IMG/VR virus record: IMGVR_UViG_2529292717_000013 | Reading direction: 5' to 3' (one strand) | Source of the DNA: a virus | Lineage: Duplodnaviria > Heunggongvirae > Uroviricota > Caudoviricetes | DNA length: 37,577 bases | Shown: piece after piece, positions 1 to 36,324 of the stretch | Layout of the letters: every line of letters begins with the position of its first letter | Position numbering within the stretch: position 1 is the first letter of the stretch | The notes under the pieces: model-generated | Told to the model about the DNA's origin: nothing | The model's input: the letters and a program-made list of their open reading frames with translations, nothing else | The model's database searches: none | Program-made: the position numbers and the translations under genes

Positions 1-1002
1 TTACCCTCTATTGTCAAAAGGGTTCAATTCAACAGCAGCCTCTAAATGACCTGGAGCAAAATGCGCATAACGCATAGTCATTTTTATATCGCTATGCCCC
101 AGTATTTTTTGCAACACAAGAATATTTCCGCCCCGCATCATAAAATGACTGGCAAACGTGTGACGTAGCACATGAGTTAATTGCCCATCAGGAAGCTCGA
201 TCTTCGCTCTCTTAATTGCAGCGTCAAAAGCCTCATAACATGGTGAAAATAGCGCTCCTCGTTTTTTAGGAAGCATAGCCTGCAATTGAGGTGAAATCGG
301 TACAGTGCGGTTCTTCTTTCCTTTAGTTTTAACAAATGTGATTCGACCGGGCAGTACTTGAGATTGCTTTAATCCTTCTGCTTCACTCCACCGAGCACCA
401 GTCGCAAGCCCAATACGGACAACAACCCCCAAATCTTTATTCCGTGACTCATCACACGCAATCAGAAGGCGTTCAATCTCATCTACATACAGAAACGCCA
501 GTTCCTTTTCTTCCTCACGAAACTTGCGAATACCAGTCAGGGGGTTTTCACCAGACCACTCCCCAAGGCGCTTCAGTTCGGCAAAAACAGCATGTAGATA
601 TGACTGCTCGCGATTAACGGTTGCTTCACTAAGTTTTTTCTTCCCCTTGGGATTCCATTCTCCTGATAGCCTTCTTTCCCGATAAGTAGCAAACATATTT
701 TTGTCAAACTGCGAAGCAAATGGATCTCCCAGCCTGGAACAAATCGCCTCAAGTTTGACTTTGCGCTCTGCACCAGAGGACAAGGTTTTACCGTACATCT
801 CAAACCAACGAGCAATCAACTCAGAAAGACGAGGACCAGAACCATCTTGAAACTCGTCTCCAACTCTACTATTCATTAAACGGCGCTCATAAGAGAGCGC
901 CTCACTTTTTGTCGCAAACTGTTTACGAATGCGTTTTCCCGATGCCCCGTAGGGATAACATTCGCAAAGCCATTTACCTGATGGAATCTTACGAACCGAC
1001 AT
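1..1002 (-). CDS. int: tyrosine integrase (phage integrase family)
   Basis: 333-aa ORF; C-terminal catalytic region with HxxR and a terminal Tyr motif (LRHTFASHF...MRYAHF); position at the prophage end. Confidence 0.9.
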   Translation of the reverse strand: MSVRKIPSGKWLCECYPYGASGKRIRKQFATKSEALSYERRLMNSRVGDEFQDGSGPRLSELIARWFEMYGKTLSSGAERKVKLEAICSRLGDPFASQFDKNMFATYRERRLSGEWNPKGKKKLSEATVNREQSYLHAVFAELKRLGEWSGENPLTGIRKFREEEKELAFLYVDEIERLLIACDESRNKDLGVVVRIGLATGARWSEAEGLKQSQVLPGRITFVKTKGKKNRTVPISPQLQAMLPKKRGALFSPCYEAFDAAIKRAKIELPDGQLTHVLRHTFASHFMMRGGNILVLQKILGHSDIKMTMRYAHFAPGHLEAAVELNPFDNRG

Positions 1003-4818: not shown

Positions 4819-4940
4819 GAAACCAGAACATGCACACACAAAAAAACCGCTTGCCATGCCGCAATCAGTCAGGTTACATTTCCGCTGCACCTCATAAAAC
4901 GGGTGCCGGGTTTCGCAGCCCGCTGACAAACGTAGCGCAC

Positions 4941-4962
4941 AACCGCGCCAGCGGTTTTTTTG
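4941..4962 (+). terminator. candidate rho-independent terminator (AACCGC-GCCA-GCGGTT + T7)
   Basis: Stem-loop followed by a T-run, about 120 bp after the 99-aa ORF. Confidence 0.4.
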
Positions 4963-5140
4963 TGCGTACTGTATCGCCACGTCTTTTTCGCATCTGAATT
5001 ATGGTGGGGCGTACGGGGCCGACTTCGGTCGGGCCGGGTTCTGCGTTTGCCGGTACTGCGAACCTCGTACGTCTCGCCACCCACAGTTTCGCAGCTCTGG
5101 ATGGTGAGTTTTCACAACTTACACACGTAGAGGCCACACC

Positions 5141-5371
5141 ATGGCAAACCGCAAACAGCACCGCGCTATCGCGGAGCGTCGTCACATCCAGACTGAAATC
5201 AACCGCAGACTTTCCCGCGCATCACGCGTCGCGCAAATCATGCACATCAATATGCTGCATGAGCGCAGCCACGCACTATCAAACATTTATTCCGCCTCTG
5301 TTTTCAGCTATCTGGCGGATGATCTGCACGAGCTTCAACAGCTCATCCAGCAGCAAAACAAACTCCATTAA
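5141..5371 (+). CDS. hypothetical protein
   Basis: 76-aa ORF. Confidence 0.4.
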   Translation: MANRKQHRAIAERRHIQTEINRRLSRASRVAQIMHINMLHERSHALSNIYSASVFSYLADDLHELQQLIQQQNKLH

Positions 5372-5522
5372 TTCCTGTTCCGGGCCTTTCCTGCACCTTG
5401 CGGCGGGAGGCCTTCGCACATCTGTAACAAGAGGATTGCCGCAATGATTCTCGCCAACGACTTTCTTGAATACCTGCTCAACACAGAACGTGATCTTGCC
5501 GTCGCGTGCGTGACGTTATGAC

Positions 5523-5813: not shown

Positions 5814-8633
5814 ATGACGGCAGAGTACATCAGGGACTGGCAACAACCGCGCCACGCAGTGGGGCGTGAAGGAACGGGGATCCCCGCTCCTGAATCCGCG
5901 CTTTCCTCCTGGCTGGATGCCTACCGGGCAGAGAACGAGCGCCGCCAGGAAATGGCTGATGCGGCGTTCTCCGCCACGCCGCTGGGCAACCTGATTAATA
6001 AAAGCCTGGACGCACAGGAAAAACAGGACAAAACCATCACACTGGCAGGAGACGCCAGAAAACAGGCACGTGGCGCGGTGGATGAAGCCATGGCCTCGCT
6101 GCGCCTGCTGCCGTCCTATCTGCGCGATCCGCTTATTCGCCACCTCTCCTTCCTGCGCAAAAAACAGGAAGCCGATCGCCGGAAAGGCAAAAAGAGCTGG
6201 CAGGCTGAACGCTACGCGCGCGGGACCCTGCGCAAAATATTCGAACGTCTGGATCGCACTGACGGGCGCTGGCTGACACCGGGTTATCGCTCCCTTGCCG
6301 GGCGCGAACGCCTGGACGATTTGCTTTACCTGCCGCAGCTCAACAAGCACCAGATACAGACGCTGGCCACCATGACGGCGGCGATGTTCAGCAGCACCTT
6401 CGAAAAACTCTGCGATGGCTTTGGCGCGACTGATGGCGAGCTGACCATGGATGTAACGCTGAAGGCTTATCAGATGCTGGCCCGCATGGCGTTACACCTG
6501 CACGCCATGCCTCCACATTATGACGCACTGACAACAGACAAAGACCGGAGGAACGAACCGGACACGGAGCTGCTGCCGGGCGCAATCCTTCGCTTGACCT
6601 GTGCGGAATGGTGGAAACGCAAACTATGGCTGTTGCGTTGTGAGTGGCGGGAAGAACAACTCCGCGCCGCCTGTCTGGTTTCCAGAAAAACATCCCCCTA
6701 TCTGAGCCAGGACGCGTTAAGCGAGTTTCGCGCACAGCGCGAGAAAACACGCGATTTCCTGAAAAGTTTCATGCTGGAAAATGAAGACGGGTTCACGATT
6801 GATCTCGAGACGGTGTATTACGCGGGAGTAAGTAACCCGGTTCACCGTAAGGCAGAAATGATGGCCACCATGAAGGGGCTGGAACTTCTGGCCGAAGCCC
6901 GTGGCGACAAAGCGGTGTTTCTGACTGTCACCTGCCCGTCAAAATACCACGCCACAACAGAGAACGGTCATCCGAACCCCAAATGGAACGGGGCCACCAT
7001 GCGCGACTCCAGCGATTACCTGGTTAACACGTTTTTTGCGGCGGTCCGCAAAAAACTGAACCGCGACGGCCTGCGCTGGTATGGCATCCGCACGGTGGAG
7101 CCTCACCATGACGGCACTGTGCACTGGCATATGATGGTCTTTGCACATCCGGACGAGATTGAAACCATCGTGTCCCACGTCTGCGATATTGCCATTCAGG
7201 AGCCGCCACGAGCTGGGCGATGACATAACTCCGCGTTTTAAGGCGGAGTACGTGACGGCTCAAAAGGCACACCAACCAGCTACATCGCCACCTACATCGG
7301 AAAGAACCTGGACAGCCGCGCCGTGGATGGCATCGACCCGAAAACGGGCAAGCCACGCGTTGACCACGAAACCGGAAAATCAATGGCCGAGAGCGTGGAA
7401 CGCGCCATCGGCTGGGCGCGCCTTCACCGGGTCCGCCAGTTCCAGTTCTTTGGCATCCCCTCCCGTCAGGTGTGGCGTGAACTCCGCCGCCTTGCCAGCC
7501 AGATGGCACGCAACCCGGAAGGCCCGCAACGGCTGAAGGATGACGCAATGGATGCGGTACTCGCTGCCGCTGATGCAGGATGTTTTGCCACCTACATAGA
7601 GAAACAGGGCGGCGTACTTGTTCCACGCAAAGACTACCTGATTCGCACCGCCTACGACCTCGCCGATGAGCTGAACGATTACGGCGAACAGAGCGTACAG
7701 ATTTACGGGATCTGGTCACCACTCATCGGGGAATCCTCCCGTGTGTGCACGCATCCGGATAACTGGAAGCTGGTAAGACGCAAACCGGAAGCGGAAGACA
7801 GCGCCCGCGAAAATGGTTTTGACCTTCAGGGCGGCCCTGCCGCCCCTTGGACTCGTGGCAATAACTGTCCCCGTGTACAGGAAACAGGCAACAGCGGGAC
7901 AGAACAGTCGAAAGAACGGCCAGCACCGTGGCCGCAGCTTCCTGACGGCGTTGAAGTGAACGAATGGATGCGCTCACTGAAACGGCACGAACGCCGGGCG
8001 CTGATGCGTTCGCTTCGTGACAAACAGGTAAAAAACAGCAGTGATGAAATGCAGAGCTGGACACAGAGCCGCAAACAGCAGCGGCCTTTGCCTGATAACC
8101 ACGAATTACTCGCTAAAGAATGGCGGGAGTCTGCCGAATCTCTCGGCCTGCATATCGGTGAACAGCAGATGCAGCACCTGCTACGGGGCGGCAGCCTGTA
8201 CGTTGACGGCAGCATCATTGCACCGCAGGGATATGAAATTGTACGCAAACCGGATACCCGCCCGGACAGCCGAATCACGCAGCTCTGGCAGCACCTGAGC
8301 CGTAATCACGGCGTAAGCAGCACGGAGATCCGCCATAACCCGGTCGCCAGCTATCTGGCACAGCTGGGGGCATCAGACCCCGAAGCCGCCGCACGCCTGG
8401 CATCCGCACTTCAGCAGGATCAGAACACCATGAAAACACCCGTTACCGTGCTTTCTGACATGCTGCGCGCCATCCGCGACGCAGAGCACGCACAGAGAAT
8501 CAGTGAAACCACTGAACGCGCCAGCCGCAAAGCAGACCTGCTGCAGGGTGGCCTGACCAGTGGAAACAAAAAACAGACAGAAACGGGATCCACAAATCCC
8601 GTAAATGAGCAAAAAACGCGCCGCGATATATGA
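5814..8633 (+). pseudogene. A: replication initiation endonuclease A (rolling-circle initiator, GPA family); frame interrupted at about 7195-7270
   Basis: Track ORFs 5814..7223 and 7323..8633 are in the same frame, separated by in-frame TGA (7221) and TAA (7239), while the +1 frame is open across the gap. HWHMMVF and YIATYIGKNLD motifs present. Confidence 0.8.
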
Positions 8634-8678
8634 AGCGCGCACAAAACAGGCGAAAGCGGGATTTAAAAATCCCGTAAA
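8583..8678. promoter_or_regulatory. candidate ParR-binding site / parMR promoter region (two palindromes with ATCCCG half-sites)
   Basis: ACGGGAT-N6-ATCCCGT and CGGGATTT-AA-AAATCCCG; the motif AAATCCCGTAAA occurs twice; about 35 bp upstream of parM. Confidence 0.35.
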
Positions 8679-8709
8679 CGGTTAATTAACCAACATAAGG
8701 AAAATCGAC

Positions 8710-9669
8710 ATGAAAATTTGTATCGACGACGGCTCCACCAACATCAAGCTGGCATGGACTGAGAACGGCGAACGCCGCAACGCCATCAGCCCGAACAGCT
8801 TCAAGTCGGAATGGTCTGCGCCGTTCGGTGGCACGCATCCCGCGAACTACATGCTTGATGGCGTGCGCTATGGCTTTGATCCGGTCAGCGATCGTTTTGT
8901 CCAGACGACTGACACGCAATACCAGTACAGCGATGTGAATGTAATCGCCATTCATCACGCGCTGGTCAAATCAGGCATCACGCCACAGGAGGTGGATGTG
9001 GTTGTCACCCTGCCACTGAGCGAGTATTTCGACACAAACGCACAGCCGGACATGGCCAACATCAACCGCAAAAAAGCGAACGTCATGCGCCCGGTGGAGT
9101 ACCAGAACGGCGAAGCATTCACTATCCGTAACGTACGGGTTATGCCTGAATCCATTCCGGCTGGCTTTAAGGCACTGGCTGACATGAGTCCGTTTGAATC
9201 CCTGCTGATTGTGGATTTGGGCGGAACCACGCTGGATGTGGCAAAGGTTCAGGGGCAGCTGGCAGGTATCAGCCAGGTGTTTTGCGATCCAAACGTAGGC
9301 GTTTCCCTGATGGCTGATGCCGTGCTGTCGGTGATGGCCACTAACGGTATGCGTACCAGTCACCACATCGCCAATACCATTATTGAGCACCGTCACGATG
9401 AAGCCTGGCTGCGCCAGCACATTCACAATGACGCGCATTACAACAGCCTGATGGCGGTTATTCGTGAAAAGGAGGAGACACTGAAACAACGAGTGATCCG
9501 CGCGCTGGCGGGTTTTTCCGGTTACGGGCGGGTGATGGTTGTCGGTGGAGGGGCGGAGATTGTGGCACCCGCTATCCGCGAAGCCTGCGGAGTTAATGCG
9601 ACTTTCATCGCGGACGGGGTGCCACAGTTTGCTCTGGTTAATGGGCTGTACGCAATGAACAAGGAGTAA
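8710..9669 (+). CDS. parM: actin-like segregation ATPase ParM/StbA
   Basis: 319 aa; N-terminus MKICIDDGSTNIKLAW and downstream blocks closely resemble plasmid R1 ParM as remembered. Confidence 0.85.
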   Translation: MKICIDDGSTNIKLAWTENGERRNAISPNSFKSEWSAPFGGTHPANYMLDGVRYGFDPVSDRFVQTTDTQYQYSDVNVIAIHHALVKSGITPQEVDVVVTLPLSEYFDTNAQPDMANINRKKANVMRPVEYQNGEAFTIRNVRVMPESIPAGFKALADMSPFESLLIVDLGGTTLDVAKVQGQLAGISQVFCDPNVGVSLMADAVLSVMATNGMRTSHHIANTIIEHRHDEAWLRQHIHNDAHYNSLMAVIREKEETLKQRVIRALAGFSGYGRVMVVGGGAEIVAPAIREACGVNATFIADGVPQFALVNGLYAMNKE

Positions 9670-9673
9670 ACCA

Positions 9674-9985
9674 ATGACGACACCAACCAGAAGAATAAGT
9701 TTCTATCTGAAGCCAGCTGCCGTCAAGAACGAAGGAGAAGCATGCGCATGGCTGGACAGCCTTACACCAGAAGCCCGCAAAAGCGGCCAACGCGTGGCTT
9801 TTCTGGCCGGGCTGGCACTTCTGAAGACGAATCCGGCAGAGGCTTACCGACTGGCCGCATGGGCTGATGATGAGATGTTACCTGTGACACAAATCAGCTC
9901 AAAAAAGTTTGAAGCACAGTCTGCACCAGTGGCTAAGATAACCAGCCAGATGGCTGGGAATATCCGGGCGTTATTTCCTGGGTAA
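9674..9985 (+). CDS. parR: ParR/StbB-like centromere-binding protein
   Basis: 103 aa; RRISFYLKP...AFLAGLALLKTNP...IRALFP resembles R1 ParR; immediately after parM. Confidence 0.7.
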   Translation: MTTPTRRISFYLKPAAVKNEGEACAWLDSLTPEARKSGQRVAFLAGLALLKTNPAEAYRLAAWADDEMLPVTQISSKKFEAQSAPVAKITSQMAGNIRALFPG

Positions 9986-10105
9986 AAGCATCTGCGCGAA
10001 AAATGCTCACATTTATAGAAACAGTATCATTCCATTTGGCGCACTTACTTCAATAATCGATCTGTTAAACAAATAGATTGTCTATTATCTATCGATTAAA
10101 ACGAT

Positions 10106-10170
10106 CAATTATCTTGACAGTAATGTGCCTTTTTGTAAGATCGTTCGCATTGTGAGCGACAAGATAATTG
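10106..10170 (+). promoter_or_regulatory. candidate promoter (TTGACA-N16-TAAGAT) bracketed by an 11-bp inverted repeat CAATTATCTTG / CAAGATAATTG
   Basis: Read directly; the -35 hexamer overlaps the left arm. Confidence 0.35.
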
Positions 10171-10247
10171 CGCGGCATTGTCCATGCAAAACGCCCCAAT
10201 AGCAGCAACTATTGGGGCGTAGAACTCGGTCGGACTCACTTAACCTG

Positions 10248-10331
10248 ATATGCGTGCCTTCCGAAGTAAATCAAAATGTGCGTCGTATATTTTATTGCTT
10301 ACACGCACCTCTGTAAAGGCACGCATATTTT
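10248..10331 (+). terminator. large hairpin (13-bp perfect inverted repeat ATATGCGTGCCTT, 55-nt spacer with nested inverted repeat) followed by a T-run; candidate attenuator in the ORF89 leader
   Basis: Inverted repeat arms at about 10248-10260 and 10316-10328, then TTTTT; ends about 20 bp before the ORF89 start. Confidence 0.4.
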
Positions 10332-10349
10332 TCCTATGAGGTAAATAAA

Positions 10350-10619
10350 GTGCGGGCTAAAACAGGTATTTGCAAGAATCCTCATCGTTATAACCCAACA
10401 TTTCTGTCTCTCCCTGAATATCAAGGACAAGAAGGTCGGCACAAATGCGCTGCCTGTGCTTTTGAGCTAGGCATAAAAGATGCGCTTGAAGGACGCGCTA
10501 TGGCTCAGAATGATTTAGTTTTAGCTAACATTCCGTTTAGCCAGGCTGGAACTGTAAGGCACAGAGATGCTTATGAAGCATATGTTCGTGGTTGGCGATT
10601 AATACACAGCAACAATTGA
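10350..10619 (+). CDS. hypothetical Cys/His-rich small protein (hotspot cargo)
   Basis: 89-aa ORF with GTG start and GAGG RBS; CKNPHRY...HKCAACAFE suggests metal binding. Confidence 0.5.
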   Translation: MRAKTGICKNPHRYNPTFLSLPEYQGQEGRHKCAACAFELGIKDALEGRAMAQNDLVLANIPFSQAGTVRHRDAYEAYVRGWRLIHSNN

Positions 10620-10627
10620 TATTTTTG

Positions 10628-10651
10628 AAGCGCCGATAAGGCGCTTTTTTT
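10628..10651 (+). terminator. rho-independent terminator (AAGCGCC-GATAA-GGCGCTT + T-run)
   Basis: Directly after the ORF89 stop. Confidence 0.6.
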
Positions 10652-11179
10652 GTTTGCACGATAGTGCACAAGTTTGCACAATTTTTTTGAACGACTTTTT
10701 GTACTTCCGGCCCGCGTGGCGGCTGGATCCGTCAAGGATCCGTACGTGCACAAAAAACGCGTTTTTTCTACGCGCAGGTGACGGGGGAACAGCCCGCGTT
10801 TCAGGGGGTAAATAGCATTCCCTGAACGATGTCGCAGAGACACAACAGAATGGCCATATTTCTCACGCTGAGCATGAAAAAGGCGTGAGGGCTTTTGATT
10901 TGATGGGGTGAAAGGTAAGGCCGTCAAAATCGCACTGAGGCAGCGAGAACATACAGTCAACGTGGTGGGATTGCGTAAGAGTCTGACCGTCGATGGTGGC
11001 GATAAACTGGAAGGCGTCGTGAAATTATCTGATTGATACAGGAGCTGGAGAGTCGGGGCATAAATTTTTTATGCCCCGGCGAAGCAGCAGACAAGCGAAG
11101 CGCGTCAGCGATACGGCACCTTGCCGACCATACTTCGTAAGTGCAAAATACGAGCAAAGAAATCAATGGAGGCTGTCTT

Positions 11180-11704
11180 ATGGTCATTAATTACAAGCAG
11201 TTAAGAGAAAAACGGGAGCAGGTAAAGGAGAGCTTTCGCCGCAATGAAGATCTGACCCCGCTTGTACGCCTTGCCCAGGGCATTGTTGATGCTTATGAAA
11301 TCTCGCTGGAGCTGCCATCACAGACCTGGACAGATAGCGACGGTAATCGCCAGCATTACGTTTCATGCGGACTGGAAGCAGCCGAAGGATTTCGCAGAAT
11401 GCCTTTATCTCAGATCCCTGCCGCTACCCCCAAAGCAAGGGGCGGCAATGATGAGCGAAAACTGATTTTCAGCATTGAGACAGTGGTTGACGACACACCT
11501 GGCGAAGTCGCCTTCGTGCATACTCCTCTTTCGATCGCAATGTATAACGATGAAATACAGGTTCGCGTTAATAATAATATCGTGCCACTTAAAGAAGGTA
11601 ATTCACCCTACACCACCGTTTGTGAAGCCATTCAATATTACGTTTTCTCTGAAATTGATAATCTCAAGCCTGACGGCACCCAGAAAATGGTTCAGCTCTG
11701 GTAA
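11180..11704 (+). CDS. hypothetical protein (hotspot cargo)
   Basis: 174 aa from the ATG at 11180 with a GGAGG RBS 7 nt upstream; no family recognised. Confidence 0.5.
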   Translation: MVINYKQLREKREQVKESFRRNEDLTPLVRLAQGIVDAYEISLELPSQTWTDSDGNRQHYVSCGLEAAEGFRRMPLSQIPAATPKARGGNDERKLIFSIETVVDDTPGEVAFVHTPLSIAMYNDEIQVRVNNNIVPLKEGNSPYTTVCEAIQYYVFSEIDNLKPDGTQKMVQLW

Positions 11705-11735
11705 AAAGGACAGCCCCATCACGGGGCTGTTTTTT
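11705..11735. terminator. bidirectional rho-independent terminator between ORF174 and Q
   Basis: A-run, ACAGCCCC-atcac-GGGGCTGT, T-run. Confidence 0.6.
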
Positions 11736-12765
11736 CATCAAGAAGAGCATAAGAGTTAAAACGGATCACCTCTTCGCCAAGCCAGTCATTGATGTGCTTC
11801 ATGGCCTCCATAACGGGCATCAGCTCGTTAATTGCGTAAACCCGCGCGGCCTTCTCCACATCACCAAACGCACTTTTTTCGCCCGGCATCGCCCCCATCA
11901 GTTGCGGCGGAACACGGTGCGCAGCCAGCACATCATCACGGGATGCCGCCTTAACATTCATGAACTCATCTTTTGCGGTGATCTGCTGGAACGGCAAAAT
12001 TTGCACCCCCTCTTTGCCCCCGTTGGGCGCATGAATGAGCACGTTTTTAAACGCACCACCACCACGTGCCCCCTGTAGCGTTTCTTTCAGGGAGTCCATG
12101 CTTTCGCGGTTTACCTGCGCTGCACCGATGTAGATGATGCACCCGGCGTGGGATCCGTTGTCGTAGTACAGTTTTCTGAACATGTCCGCCGAATGAGAAA
12201 GGCTGGCCGAGAGTAATGCGCCAAGATATTCCGGCATGCCGTAGATTTCCTGGTTAATATCCGGATTCATCAGGTGGCACACTTTGCCAGGACGAAACTG
12301 AAACGCGTCCTTGCCATCCTGCACATACCACCATGATTCAAGATCGCTTCCGCGTCGCATGTATTTCGCCAGGGCGTGCCGTAATTTAAGCGGTTCGCCG
12401 AGCATATTGCTCCGAAGCTCAAGGAATGCGTTACCGAACACAAACCAGTCCAGCGCCAGCGCCGAGAAATCCTGCCGGGAAAGCAGCGGGTGCGGAATAT
12501 AGCAGCCGAGCAATACATTGCGCTTAAAGTAAAGCGCAGACTGATGCCAGGACGTTTGCCGGGCAGCTCTTGCCAGACCGTACCAGTCCACCGGGGTTTC
12601 ATACCACCGCCCGTTATCAGCACAGTACATATTGTCCAGCAGGTCATGCCCGGTCAGGCGATAAGGACCATCAAATGTGAATGCACTGAGCGATGATTCT
12701 TTCCTGAGCGCATCAGCGAGATCAATGCGTGAACTCATGCGCACTTTTTTATTTTTTCTGCTCAT
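11719..12765 (-). CDS. Q: portal protein
   Basis: 348 aa; homology to P2 gpQ by recollection; adjacent to and co-oriented with the large terminase. Confidence 0.9.
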   Translation of the reverse strand: MSRKNKKVRMSSRIDLADALRKESSLSAFTFDGPYRLTGHDLLDNMYCADNGRWYETPVDWYGLARAARQTSWHQSALYFKRNVLLGCYIPHPLLSRQDFSALALDWFVFGNAFLELRSNMLGEPLKLRHALAKYMRRGSDLESWWYVQDGKDAFQFRPGKVCHLMNPDINQEIYGMPEYLGALLSASLSHSADMFRKLYYDNGSHAGCIIYIGAAQVNRESMDSLKETLQGARGGGAFKNVLIHAPNGGKEGVQILPFQQITAKDEFMNVKAASRDDVLAAHRVPPQLMGAMPGEKSAFGDVEKAARVYAINELMPVMEAMKHINDWLGEEVIRFNSYALLDEKTAP

Positions 12766-29735: not shown

Positions 29736-30248
29736 TCAGCCAAGCCCAAGCGCGGAACGGATGCGATCGGGCACAATGTCCTTGCCGTCCTTCCGGTAAA
29801 TGAAGTTCAGCAGGTCAATCTCCCACAACGGACGATCGTTAACACTCAGCTTGTAGTAGGTGTTTTTAATGGCGTAAGTGTGTGATGTGGCTTCGCCCTG
29901 TTTGGCTTCCCCCATATCAATTTCTGTCACACGTCCGCGCATTTCGACTTCATACAGGTCGCTTTCTGCATCGGTGTAGTATTCACCCGCAAAACGCAGC
30001 AGCGTGCCGTCAATCGTGCCGCCATACTTCAGGAACAGCTCACGAACTGCGCCCCCCATGACAAAGCTCGCATCAAGCGCGGAGTCGTCCAGACCGAGAT
30101 CAATACTTACCGCACCCATCATGCCACCACCCCGGTAGCTGTCGGTTTTGCGCGTCAGCTTAGGCAGAGTGACGGACGTCACCTTACCCACTTCGTTTTC
30201 ACCATCCACAAACAGCGTAAAAAAGCGAAGATGTTTTGGCACAGCCAT
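29736..30248 (-). CDS. FII: tail tube protein FII
   Basis: 170 aa; MAVPKHLRFFTLFVDGENEVG...YRGGGMMGAVSIDLGLDD like P2 FII. Confidence 0.85.
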   Translation of the reverse strand: MAVPKHLRFFTLFVDGENEVGKVTSVTLPKLTRKTDSYRGGGMMGAVSIDLGLDDSALDASFVMGGAVRELFLKYGGTIDGTLLRFAGEYYTDAESDLYEVEMRGRVTEIDMGEAKQGEATSHTYAIKNTYYKLSVNDRPLWEIDLLNFIYRKDGKDIVPDRIRSALGLG

Positions 30249-31429
30249 CAGGCACCTCCCAGCACCGCAAATGCAGGTTCAAAGTATTCATCAGTAAACG
30301 TCTGGTAAAGCTCCATGTCTTCCAGTGGCGGAACAGGCGTATATTTGTAGCGAATACGCACACGCCCCTGACGTAAATCCGTGGTGCTGTTATCCACCAC
30401 GTCATACCAGCACTCCGCGCCAATCAGTTTCCCGGCAGTAACCAGTGAATCCAGTTTTGCCCTGATGGCACTGATAACATCCTTCACGTTCGCAGGCGTC
30501 AGTGGACTGTCGATGGTTTCAAACTGCGCTTCTGCAATTGAATCAGCCAGCACCTGTGCGGTTCGGGTATACACCTCAAAGATGTAGGCGTTCGTTTCCG
30601 GTGTGCGGTTGCCCCAGAAGCGGAACCCGTTGCGACGAATAATGGTCGTGATTTCTTTGTTGTTGAGGCTGTTGGCATCGCTGTCTTCGGCCTGCAACGA
30701 CCAGAACACATGCCTCGACATCCCCAGCACATTTTTAACCGGAACGTTGGACAGCGATTTGTGCCAGCCCTGCTCATGGTCAATGTACGCACGAAGGCCG
30801 CACGCATAAGCAGGCGCGGGGAACGTTTCGTTTTCGCCACTTTTCGGGTTGTAGGCGATGAAGTCCGGCCATAAGAGCATCACCTCACGTTCGTTGAATT
30901 TCTGGCGGTAGGTAATCGCTTCAGCCATCGTGTTACAGCCGTGACATGAGGCATACACAAATGCGCGCAGTTTACCCGCAATCACGCACAGGGATTTTGT
31001 CACCGCCTCCGTGTCCAGCTCCGGCGCGGCCAGAATACGCGGACGGTATCCGATGCTTTCATCCTGCTCTGCAACAAGCAGCGCATACATCCCCGTATAG
31101 CTGCCGTCATCCTCAGAACCACCGATAACCAGTTGATCCTGCGTTTTCGTCTTCTTCTTTGTGTTCAGCCACGCGAACGACGATCACCTTTGTGCTCACC
31201 TGGTCTGCGATGGCCTTAAGCGCACGATAAAGCGTCCCCGTTGTCCGCATTTTCCCAGCACGTCATTGACGCGGGTCAGCAGTGTGGGCTTGTTCAGCGG
31301 GAACAGCTTCGCGTCCGCATCATCCGCCGTTGCCACGATACCGATAACGCTGGAATCAACATCGTTAATCGCTGTTACCAGGTCGGTATTTTCCGTAACA
31401 CGGGCACCATGAAAACGAGTTTCACTCAT
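30248..31429 (-). pseudogene. FI: tail sheath protein FI; compensating pair of frame changes at about 31140-31245
   Basis: Track ORFs 31196..31429 and 30248..31090 are in the same frame; the conserved middle segment (TLYRALKAIADQVSTKVIVVRVAEHKEEDENA) is in another frame. Confidence 0.85.
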
Positions 31430-31585
31430 AGCTTCAGCCCCTTGTATCCGTTAAATGATTCGGCAACAATCATCACCCACCACGCGCGTAATCTCACCCC
31501 TGCGCCGTTCTCCCGCCACGGCGACAACAAAAAGCAGTACCCCCCTCCGCACGCACATGCGACCATGCCGCACAGGGAGGGAAAG

Positions 31586-32689
31586 ATGACCGACACCACC
31601 ATGCAATTGCTCAGTCAGGGCACAGACCCCGTGAAAATGCCGGATTTTGATATTCTCGCCGAGGGTAAAACGCTGTCCGGCGTGGCAGAACGCCTGATGA
31701 GCCTGTCACTGACCGACAACCGGGGATTTGAGGCGGACCAGCTCACCATCACGCTGGATGATGCCGATGGCCAGTTGCAGCTACCGCCACGGGGCGCGCG
31801 TCTGACGGTTCTCATTGGCTGGAAAGGAGAACCGCTGACAGAAAAAGGCACTTACATTGTTGATGAAATCGCTCACGAAGGACCGCCGGACAGGCTGACT
31901 GTTTCAGCCAGAAGCGCAGATTTTCGGGATGAATTTAACGTTAAACGTGAGGTGTCCTGGCATGATGTGACCGTTGAGCGTGTGGTATCCGCCATCGCTC
32001 ATCGGTACGGTCTGAAACCGCAAATCAGCGAAATGCTGATGGATATCGAAATCGACCACGCCGACCAGACCGAAGAAAGCGACATGTCCTTCTTACGCGC
32101 ATGGCGGAAATGCTGGGCGCAATCACCACGGTAAAAAGCGGAATCTGTTATTCATATGCCGGCGGTGGCGTGAACGCACAGGGCCAGCCGTTGCCATCGT
32201 TCGCCATCACCGCAGCAGGGCGATCGCCATCAGTTCCGCATTGCTGACCGCGAAGCGTATACGGGGGTACGCGCTTACTGGCTTGATCTTAATTACGGGA
32301 AAAAGAAAAAAGTCAGCGTGAAACGCCGCAAACCGCCAAAACCCAAAAAGGAGAAAAGCAGCAGCCGTGAAGGTGATTATATGGAAGGCGCGGAAGGAAA
32401 TGTGTTTGTGTTACGCAAGACTTATCAGAACGAGCAGGCAGCAAGACGCGCAGCGGCGGCAAAGTGGCAGCAGCTACAACGCGGAGCCGCATCATTCTCC
32501 ATCACACTGGCACGTGGACGAGCAGAACTCTACCCCGAAATGCATGGCACGGTAACAGGATTTAAAAGCGAGATTGATAATCAGGACTGGATTATTGCAA
32601 AAGCCGGGCACACCATTGATAACAGCGGCTTTACCACGCAGCTTGAGCTTGAGGCAAAAATCCCGGAATGGATAGCGGAAACAGAGTGA
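31586..32689 (+). pseudogene. D: tail protein D (late control gene D family); compensating pair of frame changes at about 32095-32225
   Basis: Start at the ATG after a GGGAGGG RBS (MTDTTMQLLSQG...); conserved segments in frames 2, 1, 2; C-terminal part is track ORF 32318..32689. Confidence 0.8.
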
Positions 32690-32731: not shown

Positions 32732-32992
32732 ATGTTCCGTTGTCCGCTTTGTGGCGCATCTGCCCGTATCCGCACCAGTCGTCCGGAAAATGATTCAAAC
32801 ACCGTGCGGCAAAAGTATTACCAGTGTAACAACCTGGAATGCGGCATAAGTTTCTCAACACTGGAAGCTTTCCATAAATTCACATCGAAACACGCCTCCG
32901 GCGTTCACTCATCAGAAGGTATCCCGTGGCATGAGCTGCCAGCTTCACACAGGGGAAACAATCAGATGAGTTTGCCTTTATCTCAGAATTAA
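32732..32992 (+). CDS. ogr: Ogr/Delta-type zinc-finger late transcription activator
   Basis: 86 aa; MFRCPLCGASARIRTSR...YYQCNNLECGISFSTLEAF matches the Ogr C-x2-C...C-x4-C pattern. Confidence 0.85.
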   Translation: MFRCPLCGASARIRTSRPENDSNTVRQKYYQCNNLECGISFSTLEAFHKFTSKHASGVHSSEGIPWHELPASHRGNNQMSLPLSQN

Positions 32993-33182
32993 CAGGCAGA
33001 ATTGCCGGAGTAACAAAAAAGCGATAGATTACGCGCGGGTGCCTTTCGGCTGATGGTCGGAGGGAATACCCGAAGGCCAGATGTGGAAAGGCCCCGGAAA
33101 ACATTTCTGTTTAACCGAGGCCCTAACCGTCTAACCTTAGCAAGTGATAGGTTAGCGCCTCCCTGAAAAAGGAGCAAGCGCT

Positions 33183-33323
33183 ATGTCGCAAAAATCGCTT
33201 ACGGCCATCACGTTCTGCGTGACGGCAATCCTCATCATCTGGATGCTGCACGGTTCGCTGTGCGAAATACGGATGAGCTTCTGGGGAGCGGAGTTTGCGG
33301 CGTTCTTACAGTGTAAGCAGTAA
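33183..33323 (+). CDS. hok: Hok/Gef-family type I toxin (small membrane protein)
   Basis: 46 aa (below the track cutoff): MSQKSLTAITFCVTAILIIWMLHGSLCEIRMSFWGAEFAAFLQCKQ, with N-terminal TM and SLCEIR / AAFL motifs as in Hok proteins. Confidence 0.7.
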   Translation: MSQKSLTAITFCVTAILIIWMLHGSLCEIRMSFWGAEFAAFLQCKQ

Positions 33324-33732: not shown

Positions 33733-34566
33733 ATGGTCATGAATAATAAGCTAAAGGTAATTGAGTTAAATAGTCTTGATCTGTTTCGTAAAGAATTACT
33801 AACTACTATAAAGCCAGAGAAAGTAGAGAAATTACTTAGATGGTATCTTCAATCATATGGCGGTGTTAATTTCAAGTTCGGTTATGACAGACCAATTTTT
33901 AGAGCGCGAAAGTGCCCAAATGAATGCGGATATAATAACATCAGTGAGATATATCCCCCTCCACCAGAAAAATGTAAAATAGGCCGAATGAATGATGATG
34001 GACAAGCTATCTTCTATGGCGCTTATAGTATCGGAACAGCTTTAGCCGAAATTAATGCAAAAGAAGGGGATTATGTTCACATAGCTCACTTTAAGATGCC
34101 GGAAAATTCAGAGTCTGGAATGCGATGTTTTGCTATCGGTGAGGTCTTTAATGTGTATCACGGTGTAAATACAATTTCAATTGAAGTGTTTAATGAAATT
34201 CGCGACATCATTAGCAGAATTGGTAAGGACGACATCCGAGCTTTGCTATCATATTTGTATATGGATGCCCTTTCTGCTGAGTTGCTTAATAGTATCAATG
34301 CCCATGAGGTAAATTATATTTACTCAAGAATTTTTTGCCGTCTTCTTCTTGATAAATACCCTGATGTTGATGGCCTTATTTATCCTAGCGCTAAAATAAA
34401 AGGGGCCTCAAATATCGCTTTGCGCACAGAAACAGTTAAATCGAGAATGCATTTAGTTGCTAATCTTGTGTTTAAAGTAAATAAAATTTATCCATATGGA
34501 ATAGTAGATTTCAGTATAGTAAAACAAGCCAAAGGACATACATCAGATGGGCGCATCGTTTGGTGA
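33733..34566 (+). CDS. RES-domain protein (putative NAD+-targeting toxin-like effector), solo
   Basis: 277 aa, AT-rich; GRMNDDGQAIFYGAYSIGTALAE and DGLIYPSAKIKGASNIALRT resemble the R...E...S motifs of RES domains (recalled). No adjacent Xre-type partner. Confidence 0.5.
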   Translation: MVMNNKLKVIELNSLDLFRKELLTTIKPEKVEKLLRWYLQSYGGVNFKFGYDRPIFRARKCPNECGYNNISEIYPPPPEKCKIGRMNDDGQAIFYGAYSIGTALAEINAKEGDYVHIAHFKMPENSESGMRCFAIGEVFNVYHGVNTISIEVFNEIRDIISRIGKDDIRALLSYLYMDALSAELLNSINAHEVNYIYSRIFCRLLLDKYPDVDGLIYPSAKIKGASNIALRTETVKSRMHLVANLVFKVNKIYPYGIVDFSIVKQAKGHTSDGRIVW

Positions 34567-35093: not shown

Positions 35094-35426
35094 ATGGCAT
35101 TAATCAAATGTCCTGAATGCCAGAAAGAGGTCAGCGATTCAGCATTATGTTGCCCTGCTTGTGGTAAACAACTGAAAAAACTTAAGCGTTCATTTTTTGG
35201 AAAACTCATTAAATGGGCTTTTATATTTTTTAATATTTTTATGATCTATACACTTTTAGTTGGACTAGGAGGCGCTGATGAAATAATAAACAATACCACA
35301 TCCGATGCCGAAAAAGCTGGGGCAGTTATTGGTACGGGCTTAGGTTTAATTGCCATTGGAGGCTTATGGGTTATTGGCGATATCATTATCGGAATTTTAG
35401 TATTTCTTACTAAACCAAAGGGATAA
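35094..35426 (+). CDS. zinc-ribbon membrane protein (N-terminal CPxC...CPxC, two TM helices)
   Basis: 110 aa; MALIKCPECQKEVSDSALCCPACGK then hydrophobic segments; AT-rich. Confidence 0.55.
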   Translation: MALIKCPECQKEVSDSALCCPACGKQLKKLKRSFFGKLIKWAFIFFNIFMIYTLLVGLGGADEIINNTTSDAEKAGAVIGTGLGLIAIGGLWVIGDIIIGILVFLTKPKG

Positions 35427-35430
35427 TAAA

Positions 35431-36324
35431 ATGAAAAATATGATTTTTTCTATAGGTGCATTATTTATATCAATTAGTGTACTGCCTGTTCACGCAGCAA
35501 CTGAACATAAGAATTTCAATGCAGTGCTCCAGTGCCGAGCGATAGAAAACAATAAAGACAGACTTTCTTGTTACGATAAGTCAATACAACCGACTCGAAC
35601 GAAAGTTGCTGACAAATTTGAAAGCAGGGATCAATGCCCTGATGAGAAAGATGATGACAAACGTTTATCTTGTTATGATCGTTTTTTTTCTCCAACATTT
35701 ACTCCATCTGTAAACTCAAAATCTAAAACGGAAAAGCTAGTAACAACAGAGGCTCAGCAACCAAATCTTTCTGAAATATCTAAATGCCGAGCAGAAAATG
35801 ATAAAGAAACCAGACTAAACTGCTACGATAAACTATTCCCACAGGATGAAGCTGTTCAATCTGAATCACAATTAGAGAAAGCCACAGATGCAGGAAAATG
35901 GCACACGTCCATTACTACATCGCCAATTGATGATTCGAAAAATGTAATTTTATCGTTAGAAAGTGATGATTATATCAGAACTCCATTTGGAGAAGCTGTT
36001 ACTCCCACTCTGTTTATAGCTTGCCGAGAAAAGAAAACCGAAGTATTTCTTAGTTGGGATGTATATTTAGGCCTTGAACAAACCAGCATGCTGTATCGTC
36101 TTGATAAACAGAAAGCAGTTGAAAGAAACTGGCTAATATCTACAGATACAAAGGCTGTTTTTTATAAAGGTAATGATATTGATTTCATAAGAAAACTTGC
36201 CAACTCACATAAAATGTACACAAAAATAACCCCCTATAATGAAAGCCCTGTAAGTGCAACTTTCAATTTAAGCGGCCTGTCAAATGCACTAAAACCGCTT
36301 CAAGATGCTTGTAACTGGAAATAG
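35431..36324 (+). CDS. secreted protein with three RL(S/N)CYD(K/R) repeats
   Basis: 297 aa; signal peptide MKNMIFSIGALFISISVLPVHAA; repeats DRLSCYDK, KRLSCYDR, TRLNCYDK; AT-rich; 4-bp gap to the upstream gene. Confidence 0.55.
   Translation: MKNMIFSIGALFISISVLPVHAATEHKNFNAVLQCRAIENNKDRLSCYDKSIQPTRTKVADKFESRDQCPDEKDDDKRLSCYDRFFSPTFTPSVNSKSKTEKLVTTEAQQPNLSEISKCRAENDKETRLNCYDKLFPQDEAVQSESQLEKATDAGKWHTSITTSPIDDSKNVILSLESDDYIRTPFGEAVTPTLFIACREKKTEVFLSWDVYLGLEQTSMLYRLDKQKAVERNWLISTDTKAVFYKGNDIDFIRKLANSHKMYTKITPYNESPVSATFNLSGLSNALKPLQDACNWK

Follow-up and report, generated by a model that had tools for sequence, protein, structure and literature searches.

A P2-type prophage of the P88-like group (genus Xuanwuvirus, Peduoviridae) appears to carry, as a fixed part of its backbone, a complete R1-family type II partition cassette (ParMRC), made up of parM, parR and a candidate centromere (parC) upstream of parM. 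The prophage was found in a stretch of viral DNA of 37,577 nucleotides (IMG/VR record IMGVR_UViG_2529292717_000013), hereafter called the window, whose gene content identifies it as an integrating member of this group. On balance, we consider it probable that the cassette serves to partition the circular phage genome during transient extrachromosomal phases, when the genome has been excised or has not yet been integrated. The presence of parMR and the idea of plasmid maintenance are already published and are not new: in an analysis of 18,150 gpA-gpQ loci, Rousset et al. noted a putative partition system of P2-like prophages and voiced the plasmid idea (Rousset et al. 2022, PMC9122126), and the genes are annotated in RefSeq, PHROGs and phage records. 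What is added here to that study, and to the existing annotation of the Sakai prophage Sp13, is an analysis of the centromere, of selection, of the linkage to one type of gene A and of expression.

The integrase gene, gene A and the portal gene Q (Table 1) together mark the element as a P2-like prophage. The gene set and gene order were those of a P2-type phage (int, C, cox, A, Q, P, O, N, M, tail genes and ogr), including integration into the chromosome. Pfam matches were obtained in the window for int, A, the sheath, D and Ogr, and a gene with a repressor-like helix-turn-helix domain was also present. The predicted tyrosine integrase shows an integrative lifestyle. The same integrase gene adjoins yecA in enterotoxigenic Escherichia coli (ETEC) H10407, in Sakai Sp13 and in phage 520873, and the window shares its integration site on the yecA side with Sp13 and H10407. 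Prophages in H10407 and other strains were 99.9% identical to the window. The parMR region had 94 to 97% DNA identity to phages P88, 520873, 503458, P884B11, PhiR44_2 and Chuche and to the Citrobacter phage phiSM, in all of which ParM and a partition protein are already annotated. The preliminary description of this DNA, which had called it an integrative P2-like prophage with genes for ParM and ParR, was borne out on both counts.

By its sequence, the parM product is a genuine R1-family ParM and a close structural homologue of the plasmid protein. It matched the Pfam domains StbA_N (PF06406; 274.6 bits, 3e-82) and the C-terminal domain of ParM (PF21523; 230.2 bits, 2e-68) far over their cutoffs, and residues 2 to 316 aligned end to end with R1 ParM from the PDB (1mwk; E = 8.5e-93). 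We looked for the phosphate-1 (DxGxxxxK), phosphate-2 (DxGGxT) and adenosine (GGG) motifs, and the nucleotide-binding motifs IDDGSTNIKL, IVDLGGTTLDV and VVGGGAEIV were in register with those of R1 ParM in the HMMER alignment. Assignment to a non-ParM actin-fold family had been named beforehand as an outcome that would speak against a ParM; the profile searches matched ParM-specific domains instead. In NCBIfam, ParM had below-threshold matches only and ParR had none. The protein was about 52% identical to the closest plasmid ParMs, including that of R1. Plasmid ParMs at about 40 to 52% identity number in the thousands, and none came closer except the phage's own copies.

The 3' neighbor of parM is co-directional and starts 4 nt after the parM stop codon, an arrangement kept in all relatives. 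Its product belongs to the ParR family according to PF10784 (Plasmid_stab_B; 83.4 bits, with a cutoff of 25), a family that an R1-type ParR from an IncF plasmid also matched (103 bits). A single ParR sequence gave no match in the PDB; only an alignment profile of 14 rows, 2 of them plasmid ParRs, reached the ParR of pB171 (2jd3, "StbB"; E = 8e-9, positions 5 to 71). In PHROGs, both ParM and ParR fell into "partition protein" families. The alignment divided ParR into a conserved N-terminal domain (residues 1 to 65) with an RRISFYLKP motif that was invariant across alleles, a hypervariable linker (residues ~66 to 90) and a C-terminal motif, N-I-x-x-[LF]-F-P, conserved in all phage alleles. In R1, ParM is bound by the C-terminal tail of ParR. 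The C termini of IncI/K-type ParRs lined up with the phage motif, and one of the two alignments also paired it with KKNAMKLIN at the end of R1 ParR. An AlphaFold2 (AF2) monomer model made from a 16-sequence alignment was poor (mean predicted local distance difference test [pLDDT] score of 56). Its secondary structure, in which a disordered linker separated three helices from one at the C terminus, agreed with the layout of the alignment; the strand was missing, as would be expected for an obligate dimer. The N-terminal fold is thus supported by homology and not by the model.

Both genes were under purifying selection. Pairwise dN/dS values were 0.04 to 0.10 for parM and 0.19 to 0.34 for parR. 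The parM open reading frame (ORF) was intact in 89 of 90 related loci; one parR was truncated, three ran off contig ends, and all other fully covered loci had a full-length parR. ParR occurred as several alleles with 55 to 98% identity. The gene is a mosaic: when 9674-9985 was compared among loci L021 to L100, DNA similarity to the relatives ended either at codon 18 or at the stop codon, and between alleles dS was saturated (~1.7), as against ~0.1 in the adjacent parM. This combination indicates that the left recombination boundary of the neighboring hotspot lies inside parR. Since the N-terminal motif and the palindromes described next were the same in every allele, the alleles probably share one DNA specificity.

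Two palindromes are located 36 to 126 nt upstream of parM, in 39-nt direct repeats whose starts are 73 bp apart. They have an 18-bp core in common, CGGGA-N8-TCCCG. With one mismatch allowed, shuffled sequence gave a mean of 1.04 matches to this core per window; here, two exact copies were found side by side. The stop codon of gene A is at 8631-8633, so the left palindrome is inside the 3' end of A. In nine lineages, the GGGA/TCC cores and the 73-bp spacing were unchanged while the palindrome spacers varied, and this was still so in the Hafnia lineage, with a parM dS of 0.59. Across 89 loci, the arms were mostly conserved, ATCCTG in the right arm of site 2 being a common variant. The outer C-G pair was lost in Salmonella (site 1) and Hafnia (both sites), and no compensatory changes were seen; this speaks for a site in DNA, and an interpretation as RNA hairpins was rejected for this reason. 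Between B and cos, no CGGGA-N8-TCCCG site was found in P2, which is without parMR. The proposal that these ATCCCG palindromes form the centromere had been part of the preliminary description, and it gained from the comparison, which found them conserved and placed where type II centromeres sit. We regard it as plausible that they are parC sites.

The palindromes were also considered as the replication origin, and this was rejected. In the P2 record, the nick is at 29892, 427 nt before the end of gene A, where P2 reads GCCGCGCCTCG / GAGTCCTGTCAATAACTGT. Protein and DNA alignments put the counterpart of this nick at ~7850, about 730 nt upstream of the palindromes, and the palindromes are therefore not the origin. 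As for transcription, no sigma-70 promoter candidate above 7/12 was found in 8480-8712, the 230 nt upstream of parM, where a non-consensus promoter may lie, and no plus-strand terminator was found between A and parM. It follows that parMR is probably co-transcribed with A. In that case, the two genes would be read from the early lytic promoter together with A, and they would be silent in a repressed lysogen.

The preliminary description had placed parMR at the tin/old hotspot of P2-like phages, as cargo. The position between A and Q was right. However, parMR is not interchangeable cargo. The order A-parM-parR-[variable]-Q was constant in E. coli, E. albertii, Salmonella, Cronobacter, Citrobacter phage phiSM and Hafnia. 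Among 5426 complete E. coli genomes, parM was matched in 1303 (~24%), in 1279 of them at a coverage of at least 80%; 1279 genomes carried parM at an identity of at least 95%. The 3' half of the P88-type A gene was found at a coverage of at least 80% in 1355 genomes, so that about 94% of those with this A type also carry parM. In 82 loci whose parMR was intact, by contrast, the first 400 nt after parR were of 25 unrelated sequence types, so that at least 25 kinds of cargo follow the cassette, and in one Hafnia-type contig almost nothing separated parR from Q. In P2 itself, A is followed by orf91, tin and old. Thus, parMR belongs to the fixed backbone, goes with the P88-type A gene and forms the constant left border of the hotspot, whose variable part begins at or within the 3' part of parR. 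A ParM scan of genome contigs gave only three near-identical loci; the distant P2-like lineages were reached through the contigs of ParR homologues. One locus (L010), in a 226-kb contig labeled as the Gram-positive Vagococcus sp. (NZ_JBQPOM010000071.1), had a P88-like ParM 97% identical to that of E. coli and both palindromes; this assembly is probably contaminated or mislabeled.

Downstream of ogr, we found a second locus of a kind known from plasmid R1. The Hok/Gef ORF (33183-33323) matched PF01848 with 29.9 bits (cutoff, 22), and a match to sok in Rfam at 33037-33196 (43.6 bits, E = 2e-8) was under the gathering score of 59. The prophage thus carries homologues of both R1 stability loci, parMRC and hok/sok, and the hok/sok-like locus is a possible functional partner of parMR against loss of the element. 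NZ_CP148288.1, the circular P88-like record, also has an annotated Hok/Gef gene, and phage 520873 ends with a MokW-like gene.

Evidence for an extrachromosomal circle comes from Sp13, whose ECs_2634 ("stbA") and ECs_2635 ("plasmid partition protein") are the same system as the parMR of the window. The Sp13 ParM is 98% identical to that of the window, and Sp13 also has the palindromes and an intact gene A; the head genes have been lost to insertion sequence (IS) elements. Sp13 is reported to excise and circularize spontaneously, and upon mitomycin C treatment, the circular form increases about 30-fold and early genes are induced (Asadulghani et al. 2009, PMC2669165). A P88-type element with parMR therefore does exist as a replicating circle. 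A circular database record of 34.4 kb, which comprises an entire P88-like genome, likewise speaks for an extrachromosomal phase. In the mechanism that we propose, parMR would be expressed from the early lytic operon, and its products would hence appear only while the genome is derepressed and outside the chromosome, either after infection and before integration or after excision. ParR dimers would bind the two CGGGA-N8-TCCCG palindromes as a minimal parC, the ends of ParM-ATP filaments would be captured by the conserved C-terminal tail of ParR, and two circular copies of the phage genome would be pushed apart as the filament grows. The likely benefit would be that the circle is inherited by both daughter cells, with more lysogenization and less curing of the prophage, and the hok/sok-like locus would penalize loss. 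A further proposal, which we put forward only tentatively, is that the extrachromosomal phase is a regular and selected one, be it during the establishment of lysogeny, upon spontaneous excision or in a carrier state, in which circles that stem from rolling-circle replication are actively segregated by a ParMRC machine with a two-palindrome centromere overlapping the end of A, with hok/sok as a backup.

Several observations weigh against partition of a transient circle. Rolling-circle replication of the P2 type normally ends in lysis, which makes any phase with a need for partition hypothetical. Gene A in the window has three 1-nt deletions within about 60 nt (~7200-7265) relative to the intact A of H10407 and P88; the reading frame is lost and then regained, two in-frame stops arise, and this copy may therefore be unable to replicate. 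The candidate parC consists of only two palindromes where R1-type plasmids have arrays of 10- to 11-bp direct iterons, and the two-palindrome site may be incomplete or not be the centromere. Mean variability in 8567-8709 was 0.035, compared to 0.037 at third codon positions of parM; the conservation of the palindrome region is position specific and not general. No promoter embedded in the candidate parC was found, in the way that one is embedded in R1 parC, and autoregulation by ParR is therefore not evident. In the literature on P88, Xuanwuvirus, or P2-like phages plus ParM, we found no functional study and no experiment on this parMR system.

Other explanations of the cassette were weighed against the same data. 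The preliminary description had considered a plasmid-like state, and a heritable plasmid-prophage lifestyle maintained by ParMRC as an alternative to integration is also what Rousset et al. had suggested. In a plasmid database of 72,556 records, seven encoded this ParR, all as part of a phage, and two of them (34.4 and 26.8 kb) were inspected. The 34.4-kb circular "plasmid" pZ1323PEC0009-2 is a complete P88-like genome, which would favor such a lifestyle. This lone circular record may, however, stem from spontaneous induction in the sequenced culture. Its integrase region had 311 matches in the E. coli collection, all chromosomal in other strains. The 26.8-kb record is a linear, IS-riddled fragment, and the other five are of 228 kb to 1.4 Mb. 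The hok/sok-like locus would also suit a plasmid, and in 50,697 phage records an R1-family ParM was found only in P88-like phages and in D6, a P1-like phage-plasmid. Yet 1441 of the 1443 places of parM in E. coli were chromosomal and only 2 were on plasmids, an intact integrase was always present, and of replication functions only the rolling-circle initiator was seen and no replicon with copy control. The databases do not show a stable plasmid state, and we consider this lifestyle improbable. It also seems unlikely that ParMR acts in the lytic cycle in the manner of AlpAC, positioning or transporting replicating DNA for replication or packaging and not for inheritance. Such a role would suit the place of parMR at the end of the early replication operon after A with no recognizable promoter of its own, and there is a precedent in an actin-like protein of a prophage without which viral DNA is not replicated efficiently (PMC4446434, PMC5539076). 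Nevertheless, P2 and most P2-like phages replicate well without parMR, which only the P88-like ones have, and Sp13, a defective O157 prophage without head genes, keeps parMR intact, so that selection for maintenance fits better than selection for virion yield.

That parMR is a weapon or moron, with ParR/parC causing partition incompatibility or silencing that is aimed at plasmids or at rival P88-like phages, is the least probable of these explanations and in our view very unlikely. It would account for the location of parMR next to the gpA-gpQ anti-phage hotspot and for the mosaic parR with its deeply diverged alleles. However, ParM, ParR and both cargo ORFs (10350-10619 and 11141-11704) had no defence-system match in PADLOC, the phage ParR was only 25 to 31% identical to plasmid ParRs, and the parC regions of plasmids consist of iteron arrays and lack the CGGGA/TCCCG motif. 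With the same RRISFYLKP motif and the same palindromes throughout, the alleles are unlike specificity variants, and simple incompatibility would not need strong purifying selection on the ParM motor. A separate matter is the possibility, in our view the less likely one, that the palindromes are not the centromere and instead bind another phage regulator, form terminator hairpins of the minus strand or serve in RNA processing; parC proper would then be elsewhere or lost, and ParMR would act in another way. The first palindrome does score as a hairpin followed by a T-run on the minus strand, there are just two sites, unlike in known parC arrays, and the C-to-T change in one arm would keep a G-U pair in RNA. 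But no minus-strand gene reads into the palindrome region, and where the outer C-G pairs changed they were simply broken while the GGGA/TCC core stayed. The spacing is fixed at a value of about seven helical turns, and the spot directly upstream of parM is the position of parC in R1 and pSK41 (PMC4489591).

Partition of a transient circle, which we prefer, can be compared with known systems. In R1/NR1 ParMRC and its IncF, IncI and pB171 relatives, cis repeats are followed by parM and then parR, as here, and the phage ParR resembles R1-family ParRs in its PF10784 membership, its conserved N-terminal domain and its tail, which aligns with plasmid ParR C termini. It is shorter (103 residues versus 116 to 147 in plasmids) because its linker is shorter. 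Unlike the R1-type systems, parMR is here on an integrating phage and not on a plasmid. The cis regions differ as well. Upstream of R1-type, IncI/K-type and Klebsiella IncF-type parM, we found blocks of 10- to 12-bp direct repeats flanking a gap; the phage has two palindromes of 18 to 20 bp in place of the two blocks of 10- to 11-bp direct iterons of plasmids. In the classical layout of parC, the promoter is in the middle, between the repeat blocks; in contrast to R1 and pB171 parC, no such embedded promoter could be recognized in the phage region. The best functional analogy, and the nearest system studied by experiment, is srpMRC of the SXT/R391 integrative and conjugative elements (ICEs), a type II partition system that is likewise in a normally chromosome-integrated element; it is coexpressed with excision and replication functions and stabilizes the excised circular form (Carraro et al. 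2015, PMC4489591). SrpM and SrpR are remote relatives of R1 ParMR, and experiments have established their function, whereas a role for the phage parMR is inferred; also unlike the phage, SXT/R391 elements are conjugative and replicate from oriT with a relaxase. AlpAC/alpS of the Corynebacterium prophage CGP3 is another case of an actin-like filament protein and a DNA-binding adaptor in an integrated prophage. AlpC, however, is a divergent actin-like protein that aids replication and transport of viral DNA, whereas here a close R1-type ParM occurs with a canonical ParR.

Table 1. Positions of the features discussed in the window
Feature	Position	Strand	Remarks
Tyrosine integrase	1..1002	-	Pfam Int_N, Phage_integrase
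Gene A, P2-type rolling-circle replication endonuclease	5814..8633	+	Pfam Phage_GPA 9e-113; directly upstream of parMR
Homologue of the P2 ori nick region	7818..7869	+	GCCGCCCCTTG / GACTCGTGGCAATAACTGT
Candidate centromere repeat 1	8567..8605		A-tract, then ACGGGAT-N6-ATCCCGT (8583-8602); in the last codons of gene A
Candidate centromere repeat 2	8640..8678		A-tract, then CGGGATTT-N2-AAATCCCG (8657-8674); ends 36 nt before the parM start codon
parM, predicted actin-like segregation ATPase, 319 aa	8710..9669	+	Pfam, PDB 1mwk, phrog_691 "partition protein"
parR, predicted 103-aa ParR/StbB-family adaptor	9674..9985	+	PF10784
Variable cargo (the real hotspot)	9986..11718	+	Between parR and portal gene Q
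Portal gene Q	11719-12765		
Ogr gene	32732-32992		
hok/sok-like post-segregational killing locus	33037..33323	+	Downstream of ogr

The variable cargo contains two ORFs, at 10350-10619 (phrog_3941) and 11141-11704 (phrog_5091), both of unknown function in PHROGs and without Pfam or NCBIfam matches; they are candidate accessory or defence genes. A consensus sigma-70 promoter, TTGACA-16-TAAGAT, was found at 10114-10141, flanked by a perfect 11-bp inverted repeat (10106-10116/10160-10170). The preliminary description had offered the repeats at 10060-10170 as a further ParR binding site. This was rejected: they lack CGGGA/TCCCG half-sites, occur with a single type of cargo, are missing in most of the relatives with parMR and overlap the consensus promoter. 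They are best read as the promoter/operator region of the cargo gene at 10350-10619. On the minus strand, a promoter-like TTTACA-17-TAAAAT (10317-10289) is followed by a 13-bp GC-rich hairpin and a U-run (10220-10185), and the fold had a z-score of -3.4. This minus-strand segment, within 10180-10320, could be a small RNA of about 100 nt, antisense to the 5' leader of the same cargo gene.

Elsewhere in the window, Rfam matches above the gathering score were obtained for isrK (4887-4961) and a C4 antisense RNA (4997-5084), in the early region upstream of the ORF at 5001-5447. The sheath ORF (280 aa) and gene D (two ORFs), within 30248-32689, appear split. Together with the deletions in gene A, this points either to a decaying prophage or to an assembly with many indel errors. 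Beyond ogr, near the right end, genes for a RES-domain protein (33733-34566), a zinc-ribbon membrane protein (35094-35426) and a VasI-like protein (35431-36324) form what looks like a second cargo region beside the attachment site. A search of the window for the P2 cos 19-mer with up to 5 mismatches gave chance hits only.

The occurrence of a partition motor under strong purifying selection in an integrating prophage suggests that inheritance of the circle, after excision or before integration, is a problem that it pays to solve. If the palindromes are confirmed as parC, they would constitute an unusually small type II centromere. The combination of parMRC and hok/sok in an integrating virus would, if true, resemble the stability toolkit of plasmid R1, in a virus present in a quarter of complete E. 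coli genomes. Such a role would bear on how temperate phages escape abortive lysogeny and curing, and the blurring of plasmids and integrative elements, known for SXT/R391, would then reach phages.

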